64,000 bases of DNA, taken from NCBI GenBank assembly GCA_001644455.1, contig LSTF01000036.1, positions 1,772 through 65,771 on the forward strand, given 5' to 3'. Source of the stretch: Betaproteobacteria bacterium SCGC AG-212-J23. Lineage in GTDB: Bacteria; Pseudomonadota; Gammaproteobacteria; Burkholderiales; SG8-39. Both the position numbers and the translations under genes were made by a program. Positions 27,876-28,829 of this stretch are shown piece by piece; position 1 is the first letter of the stretch; each line of letters begins with the position of its first letter. Below the pieces are notes generated by a model. It did no database searches, had not been told where the DNA came from, and saw nothing but the letters and a program-made list of their open reading frames with translations.

Positions 27876-28829
27876 ATGCGCTACACGCTCAAGCAGATCC
27901 ATTGCCGTCCCTGGACGCTGTCCTATCTCTCGGCGAAGCTCATCGAGAGTCATTACGAGAACAACTACGGCGGGGCGCTGCGGCGCCTGAACGCCATCAC
28001 CGCGCAGCTCGAGTCGCTCGATTTCGAGAAGACGCCGCCGCACGTACTCAACGGGCTCAAGCGCGAGGAGCTGGTGGCGCTCAATTCCACGCTGCTGCAC
28101 GAGCTGTACTTCGCGAGCATGGGCGGGGACGGCCAGCCGACCAAGGCGATGATCGAAGTGCTGGCGCGCGACTTCGGCTCGCTCGATCGCTGGCGCGCCG
28201 AGTTCCGGGCGATGGGCTACGCACTCGGCGGCGGCTCGGGATGGGTCGTCCTGGCCTACGTCCCGCGCGATGGCCGGCTCATCAACCAGTACGCCGCGGA
28301 GCACTCGCAGGCGATCTCGAGCGGCGTGCCGATTCTCGCGCTCGACATGTACGAGCACGCGTATCACATGGACTTCGGCGCCAACGCAAAGGCCTACGTC
28401 GATACCTTCCTGCGCAACGTCGACTGGCCCGCGCTCGGGCAGCGGTATGAGGATGCGGCCAAGGTGTCGGGCCCTCGACCGCTCGAGCAGCCCGAGTTCG
28501 GCGATATCCAGGGCGTCGGCGTGGAGGAAGTGAAAGCGATGATGGCCGGAGGGCAGAAGGTCCAGGTCATCGACGTGCGCCCGCGGGCGGCAGCATTGCG
28601 CGGGCAGGATATTGCCGAGGGCGCCCAATGGCGGGATCCCGAGCAGCTGCAGCAATGGATCGGCGAGCTGTCGAAATCGGAGCCGGTCGTGGTGTACTGC
28701 GCCTATGGCTTCCACGTCGGCTGCAAGACCGCGATCAAGCTGCGTGAAGCGGGTTTCGACGCGAAATACATGAACAGCGGCCACTCGGGGTGGAAGGCGA
28801 TCGGATATCCCCTCAAGATGAATCCGTGA
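27876..28829 (+). CDS. Fe/Mn superoxide dismutase-like domain fused to a C-terminal rhodanese domain (ChrC-like + ChrE-like)
   Basis: 317 aa. The SOD part has SHYENNYGG, LLHELYF and LDMYEHAYHMDF, with H/H/D/H ligand positions present. The rhodanese part has VQVIDVRP...VVVYCAYGFHVGCK...GHSGW. Confidence 0.82.
   Translation: MRYTLKQIHCRPWTLSYLSAKLIESHYENNYGGALRRLNAITAQLESLDFEKTPPHVLNGLKREELVALNSTLLHELYFASMGGDGQPTKAMIEVLARDFGSLDRWRAEFRAMGYALGGGSGWVVLAYVPRDGRLINQYAAEHSQAISSGVPILALDMYEHAYHMDFGANAKAYVDTFLRNVDWPALGQRYEDAAKVSGPRPLEQPEFGDIQGVGVEEVKAMMAGGQKVQVIDVRPRAAALRGQDIAEGAQWRDPEQLQQWIGELSKSEPVVVYCAYGFHVGCKTAIKLREAGFDAKYMNSGHSGWKAIGYPLKMNP

Follow-up and report, generated by a model that had tools for sequence, protein, structure and literature searches.

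A widespread fusion of a ChrC-type superoxide dismutase with a ChrE-related rhodanese in a betaproteobacterial chromate-resistance cluster

A single gene in a 64,000-nucleotide stretch of the genome of Betaproteobacteria bacterium SCGC AG-212-J23 (assembly GCA_001644455.1, contig LSTF01000036.1, positions 1,772 to 65,771 of the forward strand; hereafter the window, to which all coordinates refer) encodes a protein which, judged by profile and sequence comparisons, is a ChrC-type iron superoxide dismutase (SOD) connected through a conserved linker, some 20 residues long, with a rhodanese domain related to ChrE. The gene lies within a chromate-resistance cluster and adds a member, no more than 92% identical to any sequence found, to an abundant, catalogued and experimentally unstudied family of fused ChrC-rhodanese proteins. 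An initial annotation of this DNA, made from the letters and their translations, had proposed an SOD-like domain at about residues 1-195 that carries the four metal ligands and is followed, after roughly 20 linker residues, by a rhodanese at about residues 215-317 with an active-site cysteine and a GHSGW end; each of these elements was recovered in our analysis. The gene is laid out as follows:

27865..27871, plus strand: ribosome-binding site AAGGAGG, strong and belonging to the fusion gene (read from the sequence)
27876..28829, plus strand: complete fusion gene, ChrC-type SOD-linker-rhodanese (Pfam, NCBIfam, phmmer, AlphaFold2 model)
27876..28460, plus strand: ChrC-type Fe/Mn-SOD domain, residues 1-195 (Pfam Sod_Fe_C, alignments to solved SODs, Foldseek)
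27951-27953, 28098-28100, 28344-28346 and 28356-28358, plus strand: codons of the SOD ligands H26, H75, D157 and H161, respectively (codons checked)
27963-27965 and 27975-27977, plus strand: codons of the second-sphere residues Asn30 and Ala34, which replace His30 and Tyr34
28461..28520, plus strand: inter-domain linker, residues 196-215, KVSGPRPLEQPEFGDIQGVG (length conservation, predicted local distance difference test, pLDDT)
28521..28826, plus strand: single-domain ChrE-related rhodanese, residues 216-317 (Pfam Rhodanese, NCBIfam rhodan_ChrE)
28698-28700, plus strand: codon of the catalytic Cys275 (conserved in 73/73)
28722-28724, plus strand: codon of a second conserved cysteine, Cys283 (71/73)

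The open reading frame (ORF) of 317 codons runs from an ATG to a TGA, shares its GC content of 0.65 with the window (0.87 at third codon positions, GC3) and, as a genuine native gene, specifies a cytoplasmic two-domain protein that lacks a signal peptide. No second copy of either the SOD or the rhodanese was found elsewhere in the 64-kb window. To place it among its relatives we used a species-level scan of one genome per GTDB species with the patterns [ETK]SH[YH]ENNY and DMYEHAY, which matched no fewer than 587 ChrC-like loci. Among the 80 best matches, 72 are intact single-ORF fusions (43-86% identity), four are frameshifted and a few are truncated by contig ends, and it is these 72 together with the window protein (73 sequences) that furnish the fused-family statistics given below. 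Against this background we reject the idea that a frameshift or assembly artefact joined two genes, which the initial annotation had named among the findings that would undo its reading and to which we would assign a vanishingly small chance: 72 further intact single-frame copies exist in independent genomes, and more than 100 clusters at 90% identity, at least 11 full-length clusters at 50% identity and copies on RefSeq plasmids speak against it as well. The single frameshifts in the four long-read contigs of metagenome-assembled genomes (MAGs; L051, L067, L069 and L075) break the fused ORF and do not create the fusion; they are probably homopolymer sequencing errors and not marks of pseudogenes.

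Both domains score above the curated Pfam thresholds, with Sod_Fe_C (PF02777) matching residues 89-188 (E 1.8e-21, 76.5 bits; cut-off 20.9) and Rhodanese (PF00581) residues 216-308 (E 4.3e-8, 34 bits; cut-off 22.2), and hence the assignments, which the initial annotation had proposed to verify by a domain scan, lie far beyond chance. The NCBIfam SOD models span residues 21-195, and in a phmmer search of the PDB residues 8-197 align gap-free to complete SOD chains (1coj, E 3e-26; 1ma1; 1p7g). Further, Foldseek superposes the N-terminal two-thirds of an AlphaFold2 model of the protein on whole Fe/Mn SODs with template-modelling (TM) scores of 0.87-0.89 at about 2 Å. The Pfam family of the N-terminal alpha-hairpin (PF00081) attains 15.5 bits against a cut-off of 27, the match covering profile positions 17-81 of 82, and it goes entirely undetected in ChrC of the Cupriavidus metallidurans CH34 plasmid pMOL28; such low scoring is consistent with the altered second sphere of the ChrC family described below. 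Thus, going by the model, the N-terminal SOD fold is present and its sequence is divergent. The alignments to solved SODs place the four metal ligands at H26 (in SHYENNY), H75 (in LLHELYF), and D157 and H161 (both in LDMYEHAYH), and all four are invariant in the 73 fused sequences.

The second sphere of the metal site sets the protein apart from canonical Fe/Mn SODs. The enzymes of Aquifex pyrophilus (1COJ) and M. thermautotrophicus (1MA1) have the fold and the four ligands in common with the window protein, at 21-28% identity, but they lack a C-terminal rhodanese domain and possess Tyr34, the gateway residue, and His30, where three gap-free alignments to solved SODs put Ala34 and Asn30 in the window protein; the Tyr34/His30 pair of the superfamily is thus missing. 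Within the window clade, Ala occupies the Tyr34 position in 72/73 and Asn the His30 position in 64/73 fused sequences, and in a wider set the respective counts are 85/90 and 74/90 for fused and 25/28 and 23/28 for unfused ChrC-like sequences. Since Ala34 is also found in pMOL28 ChrC, whose SHYENNYGGA motif is identical to that of the window protein, and in nearly all of these unfused representatives, the Ala34/Asn30 pair is, on the alignments, a signature of the entire ChrC family and not specific to the fusion. Proximity to annotated ChrC proteins, this shared signature and the location in a chr cluster together place the domain in the ChrC subfamily, as an ortholog of chrC.

The functional reference for this domain is ChrC of Ochrobactrum tritici 5bvl1, a stand-alone protein from an operon without a rhodanese (TnOtChr chrBACF), which is a tetrameric, H2O2-sensitive Fe-SOD with 1.4 mol Fe per mol, and the loss of which raises reactive oxygen species (ROS) under chromate (PMC4779226). 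The substitutions described above could nonetheless be taken to mean that the domain is not primarily an SOD: an open iron site might act on Cr(V)/chromate, sulfide or persulfide, with the rhodanese cysteine accepting or delivering sulfur. The prevalence of Ala34 and Asn30 in fused and unfused proteins alike and the sub-threshold score of the Pfam N-terminal domain would fit this, as would a deep fused clade (P0219, P0265) that has lost H26 and H75 and kept the rhodanese Cys loop. However, the four ligands are invariant in the window clade, and the O. tritici protein is SOD-active, binds Fe and lowers ROS (PMC4779226), although Ala34 is unconfirmed in that particular ChrC, which was not among the 60 matches listed of 64 plasmid matches. 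Weighing these, we regard a primarily non-SOD role as highly improbable.

Two observations on the wider ChrC family may be added here. The fused representatives P0219 and P0265 (about 31% identity to the window protein), in which H26 and H75 are replaced (Tyr, Gln), retain a rhodanese loop of the form C-[AM]-Y-G-[FG]-W-V-S and fall in the deepest fused clade of the SOD-domain tree, which also includes P0164 and P0187; their sequences suggest that the SOD fold has degenerated to a scaffold while the rhodanese is still active. Separately, many unfused ChrC-like proteins (P0142, P0143, P0161, P0177-P0181, P0188, P0198, P0200 and P0215, among others) carry an extension of 35-60 residues ahead of the SOD domain, and these extensions could be export signals, implying periplasmic ChrC-like SODs.

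Turning to the C-terminal domain, the best rhodanese model is NCBIfam NF033833 (rhodan_ChrE, chromate-resistance protein ChrE), which the window protein matches at 80.1 bits, below the equivalog cut-off of 120. The catalytic Cys275, in VVVYCAYGFHVGCK, is invariant across the fused sequences and aligns with the cysteine of pMOL28 ChrE; in the AlphaFold2 model it directly follows the strand at 271-274, in a region with the alternating strand/helix pattern of a rhodanese, and G302 and W306 of the C-terminal GHSGW are likewise invariant. The active-site loop has its own, nearly invariant form in the fused family, C-[AV]-Y-G-F-H-[VI]-G-C (CAYGFHVGC in the window protein), whereas pMOL28 ChrE has CVHGHQVSQ; the stand-alone loop CVHGH[EQ]VSQ recurs exactly in six of nine ChrE-like genes of related loci, with close variants in the other three. 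The canonical ChrE loop Y-C-V-H-G-H-[EQ]-V-S-Q is thus absent from the window protein and, as its score also falls short of the NF033833 cut-off, we classify the fused rhodanese, by sequence, as ChrE-related and not as a ChrE equivalog. Its nearest solved relatives, 3flh and 3hix, are weak matches, and both are uncharacterised proteins.

Rhodanese active-site loops act as anion cradles, which might favour viewing the domain as a chromate-binding, sensing or reducing module of the Cdc25/Acr2 or ChrB C-terminal type and not as a sulfurtransferase. The description of the ChrB C-terminus as rhodanese-like (PMC3817168) points the same way. But all 73 fused sequences have Val or Ile six residues beyond Cys275, and the arginine of the C-X5-R oxyanion-reductase loop is therefore absent, which leads us to reject a Cdc25/Acr2-type loop; homology to the ChrB C-terminal domain, as suggested by PMC3817168, is likewise rejected, given a probability of 0.16% for ChrB_C in the profile-profile comparison by hhalign. 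We accordingly hold an oxyanion module of either type to be extremely unlikely.

The two domains are connected by residues 196-215, and the surrounding region (residues 192-218 of the window protein) is of identical length in 65 of the 73 fused sequences and partly conserved in sequence. The AlphaFold2 model, built from a 27-sequence alignment, has a mean pLDDT of 87.8 and a predicted TM score (pTM) of 0.78, with the linker at intermediate confidence (block means of 92 for residues 191-200, 75 for 201-210 and 87 for 211-220); the pTM suggests a defined arrangement of the domains in the model. Foldseek found no solved structure spanning both, the matches covering only the SOD part with TM scores normalised to the query of at most 0.58.

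The closest well-known counterpart of this protein is encoded by two genes. A tblastn search of plasmids showed it to be colinear, in two pieces, with the adjacent chrC and chrE of pMOL28: residues 1-196 are 58% identical to ChrC (WP_011239974.1) and residues 218-317 are 37% identical to ChrE (WP_011239975.1), with the catalytic Cys kept. The order of SOD followed by rhodanese on one strand is the same, but in pMOL28 a stop codon and 17 intervening bp keep chrC (594 bp) and chrE (342 bp) apart, in keeping with the statement in the initial annotation that these are separate genes in C. metallidurans. Its description of the fusion as ChrC-like plus ChrE-like needs to be qualified: the ChrC assignment stands, whereas the rhodanese, with 80 bits against 120 and its different loop, can only be called ChrE-related.

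A second point of comparison is the fusion on plasmid p1-T1 of Acidovorax sp. T1 (WP_087745642.1), which has the same single-polypeptide architecture and sits in a chrB-chrA-[fusion]-chrF operon. Plasmid fusions, from Acidovorax and others, are only 43-49% identical to the window protein; that of Acidovorax T1 differs further in a linker about 11 residues shorter (14-15 versus 26 over the 192-218 region) and in its loop, CLRGKDIG. Since the SOD tree groups its SOD domain nearer to the unfused pMOL28 ChrC than to the window clade, it probably has an independent history of fusion or fission.

The fused architecture is abundant in public data and recurs in many bacteria of soil, and the rarity and novelty implied by the initial annotation were overstated. 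The closest relatives in the species-level scan (86% identity) come from uncultured Burkholderiales and betaproteobacterial soil MAGs, and the hosts of the fusion extend over Burkholderiales, Usitatibacter, Casimicrobiaceae, several Alphaproteobacteria, Methylomirabilota/Rokubacteria, Blastocatellia (Acidobacteria) and Gemmatimonadaceae MAGs. A protein collection clustered at 90% identity holds at least 8000 matches to the window protein, of which the top 120 are nearly all 315-326 residues long (most 317), 81-92% identical and endowed with both Pfam domains; the representatives at 50% identity include 11 or more full-length fused clusters, with identities as low as 31%, along with 40 two-domain fragments. 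Where the fused proteins have any database name, it is only 'Fe-Mn family superoxide dismutase', and full-text literature searches found no paper describing an SOD-rhodanese fusion. Seven plasmids of cultured strains carry it, namely those of Acidovorax sp. T1, Variovorax paradoxus (two), Pseudomonas sp. JS3066, Rhizobium bangladeshense (two) and R. jaguaris. These seven belong to a total of 64 plasmids with a ChrC-like gene, the remainder being seven from Cupriavidus with split chrC and chrE and about 50 with ChrC alone.

Variants of the architecture were also encountered. The top three matches in the 90%-clustered collection, metagenome proteins of 516, 484 and 476 residues (P0001, P0002 and P0003; 66-70% identity), have the arrangement SOD-SOD-rhodanese. 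Pairs of full-length fused paralogues occur as direct tandems in L071 (8001-8951 and 8969-9919) and L081 (8001-8975 and 9053-10042), and within the same locus in L023 (5994-6935 and 8001-8951).

The initial annotation had also proposed comparing the phyletic spread of fused and split forms. In a neighbour-joining tree of the SOD domains, which carries no support values and in which some 'unfused' representatives are possibly truncated, fused copies interleave with unfused ones, parsimony counts about six changes of state, and the pMOL28 ChrC, although unfused, falls within a set of fused lineages. The pattern speaks for a labile fusion boundary, with recurrent fusion or fission. Further, stand-alone ChrE-type genes accompany the fusion in several loci (L006, 11181-11441; L014, 6112-6414; L027, 2312-2611; L082, 9103-9420; and others); the coexistence of canonical ChrE genes, with the loop CVHGH[EQ]VSQ, and the fusion in the same loci argues against simple redundancy of the fused rhodanese and ChrE.

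These patterns bear on whether the fusion has any mechanistic meaning. It could be neutral in this respect, a stop codon having been lost between adjacent operon genes with co-expression as the sole gain and neither a shared intermediate nor channelling. With only 17 bp between chrC and chrE in pMOL28, such a fusion is a trivial mutation; the interleaving of fused and unfused forms, the lack of a rhodanese alongside most plasmid ChrC genes, and the coexistence of separate ChrE-like genes with the fusion in L006, L014, L027 and L082 are all compatible with it. In contrast, the linker has kept its length and part of its sequence across 43-86% identity, the pTM of 0.78 is what one would expect if the domains were arranged in a defined way, the rhodanese of the fusion has acquired a nearly invariant loop of its own that differs from that of stand-alone ChrE, and the fusion persists across phyla. 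On balance, we see a purely neutral fusion as credible, though less likely than not.

The genomic setting ties the fusion to chromate. The neighbouring genes of the window are:

26190..27134, minus strand: chrB regulator (Pfam ChrB_C E 6e-43, ChrB_N E 4e-6; 44% identity to pMOL28 ChrB1)
27135..27299, no strand: intergenic region from which chrB and the lipoprotein gene diverge, presumed promoter/operator (position only)
27300..27866, plus strand: lipoprotein gene, 188 residues, lipobox LAGC / MRTAIATILAAAALAGC, the first gene of the plus-strand operon
28868..29446, plus strand: DUF1080/3-keto-disaccharide-hydrolase-like gene (weak Pfam PF06439, 25.8 bits versus a cut-off of 26.8)
29443..30603, plus strand: major facilitator superfamily (MFS) transporter, chrP-like (62% identity to the pMOL28 MFS gene; GTG start mapped)
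30616..31629, plus strand: YncE-like beta-propeller, chrZ-like (Pfam/NCBIfam YncE/beta-propeller; 27% identity to the pMOL28 YncE-family gene)
31626..32801, plus strand: chrA chromate efflux transporter (TIGR00937, 419.6 bits versus 171.7; 71% identity to pMOL28 ChrA1)
32840..33763, plus strand: DUF1259 protein, chrY-like (Pfam PF07485, E 2.7e-89)

All genes from the lipoprotein gene through the fusion to that of the DUF1259 protein are co-directional, and chrB is divergent. The placement of the fusion between chrB and chrA in the initial annotation is accurate insofar as it lies between the two, but neither is its immediate neighbour, chrB being on the opposite strand beyond the lipoprotein gene and chrA 2.8 kb downstream beyond three genes. 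The stop of the lipoprotein gene lies 9 bp ahead of the fusion ATG, the DUF1080-like gene ends in a TGA that shares nucleotides with the GTG at which the MFS gene begins (GTGA, 29443-29446), and chrA starts (31626) before the YncE-like gene has ended (31629); the latter two overlaps suggest translational coupling along the operon. ChrB would control this operon, judging from position only. As a sigma-70 consensus scan gave no site, the promoter/operator label of the divergent region likewise follows from its position: no consensus sigma-70 promoters were found across 26900-34200, and in a terminator scan of the same interval the matches did not exceed the chance level.

In pMOL28 the cluster reads chrB-chrA-chrC-chrE-chrF, followed by two small ORFs and the MFS, DUF1259 and YncE genes. 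The window differs in its rearranged gene order and divergent chrB, but its homologues of chrB, chrA, the MFS (chrP), DUF1259 (chrY) and YncE (chrZ) genes indicate that, at the level of gene content and sequence, it is a rearranged version of the pMOL28 chr system, with the fusion as the fused counterpart of chrC plus chrE. Among 41 related loci with full flanks of ±8 kb, 26 have chrA and/or chrB, five have other chr accessory genes only and 10 have none; the last share no common alternative context, their neighbours being miscellaneous (histidine kinase, DoxX, thiolase, DUF885, nitronate monooxygenase and peptidase M24).

Other genes of the neighbourhood deserve brief mention. The lipoprotein matches no Pfam or NCBIfam family; it has homologues in 9 of 82 related loci, in some of which (e.g., L004, L016 and L071) it occupies the same position between chrB and the fusion. 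The DUF1080-like gene is the commonest immediate partner of the fusion (18 of the 41 full-flank loci, often directly 3'), and the two form a conserved pair that is absent from the pMOL28 cluster. On the other side, chrB adjoins a gene for an EamA/DMT transporter (25168-26187, minus strand) whose C-terminal tail is extremely rich in His (HGHAHVHDPMTHEHEHVHDEHHRHEH...HSHSHHPDLHHRHRH); a related DMT gene is found near the chr cluster of the Acidovorax plasmid p1-T1. After the transporter gene comes one for an NADPH-dependent FMN reductase (PF03358; 24565-25134, minus strand), which could be a ChrR/YieF-like chromate reductase.

Taken together, we favour as probable a mechanism in which the fused protein couples superoxide removal to thiol/thiyl-radical chemistry during Cr(VI) stress. 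Briefly, ChrA would export most of the chromate, and the remaining Cr(VI) would be reduced by glutathione, cysteine and flavoenzymes, giving rise to Cr(V), thiyl radicals and superoxide. The SOD domain would then dismutate the superoxide, while the rhodanese, via Cys275 and possibly the nearby conserved Cys283, would take on the thiol side of the same Cr(VI) chemistry, where it might scavenge glutathione thiyl radicals, resolve Cr-thiolate adducts, or carry persulfide sulfur for the repair of thiols and Fe-S clusters. The fusion would set a 1:1 ratio of the two activities and keep them in proximity on an oligomeric SOD core, a tetramer being assumed by analogy with ChrC. There are partial precedents for such chemistry. 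The rhodanese RhdA of Azotobacter vinelandii scavenges glutathione thiyl radicals via its catalytic Cys (PMC3458005) and thus illustrates how a rhodanese cysteine may serve antioxidant thiol chemistry, though by functional analogy only, as RhdA has its rhodanese domains in tandem, another loop and no known SOD partner. Fusions of rhodanese domains to redox enzymes are likewise on record, in the form of the SQR and PDO enzymes of sulfide oxidation (PMC9163753).

Several points weigh against this proposal. The catalytic steps, oligomeric state and regulation of the fused members are all matters that we infer. With Ala34 in place of Tyr34 and Asn30 in place of His30, the kinetics of the SOD may be atypical, and the effects of chrC on chromate resistance itself have been reported as small only (PMC4779226). 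ChrE, for its part, has only been hypothesised to cleave chromium-glutathione complexes (PMC10581121), and even this proposed role may not be transferable to the fused rhodanese, in view of its sub-cut-off ChrE score and different loop. Finally, ChrC is mostly found without a rhodanese (in about 50 of the 64 plasmids), and 10 of the 41 full-flank loci lack chr genes nearby.

The initial annotation went further in arguing that the two functions act on the same intermediate. Such a shared intermediate is plausible and compatible with the conserved linker, the pTM of 0.78 and the specialised rhodanese loop. It is not established, however: neighbouring genes of an operon may become fused for no more than their co-expression, and a fusion hence does not by itself prove a shared intermediate, and the predominance of ChrC without a rhodanese, the interleaving of fused and split forms, the coexistence of separate ChrE and the difference in the loop stand on the other side. 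A more specific variant would make the protein a dedicated 'radical sink' of chromate stress, a channelled two-step detoxification enzyme in place of two independent enzymes. Here the Cys275/Cys283 pair would capture glutathione thiyl or Cr-thiolate radicals formed in the thiol reduction of Cr(VI), the resulting disulfide radical anion would reduce O2 to superoxide, and the attached ChrC iron site, its funnel widened by the Tyr34-to-Ala change, would dismutate that superoxide at once. We consider such channelling a speculative and distinctly unlikely option; if true, it would provide the first defined reaction for ChrE-type rhodaneses.

The fusion joins two functions already known as operon neighbours and is thus useful to specialists rather than surprising. 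At the level of annotation, the name 'Fe-Mn family superoxide dismutase' hides the rhodanese domain. For the enzymology of SODs, the family-wide loss of Tyr34 and His30 in an SOD reported to be active constitutes a natural experiment. Among the accessory proteins of the classic chr system, ChrC and especially ChrE, for which no reaction has been demonstrated, are poorly understood; the widespread conservation of the fusion offers Rosetta-stone evidence for their cooperation, and the fused protein presents a convenient single protein in which superoxide removal may be linked with thiol and sulfur chemistry in Cr(VI) stress.

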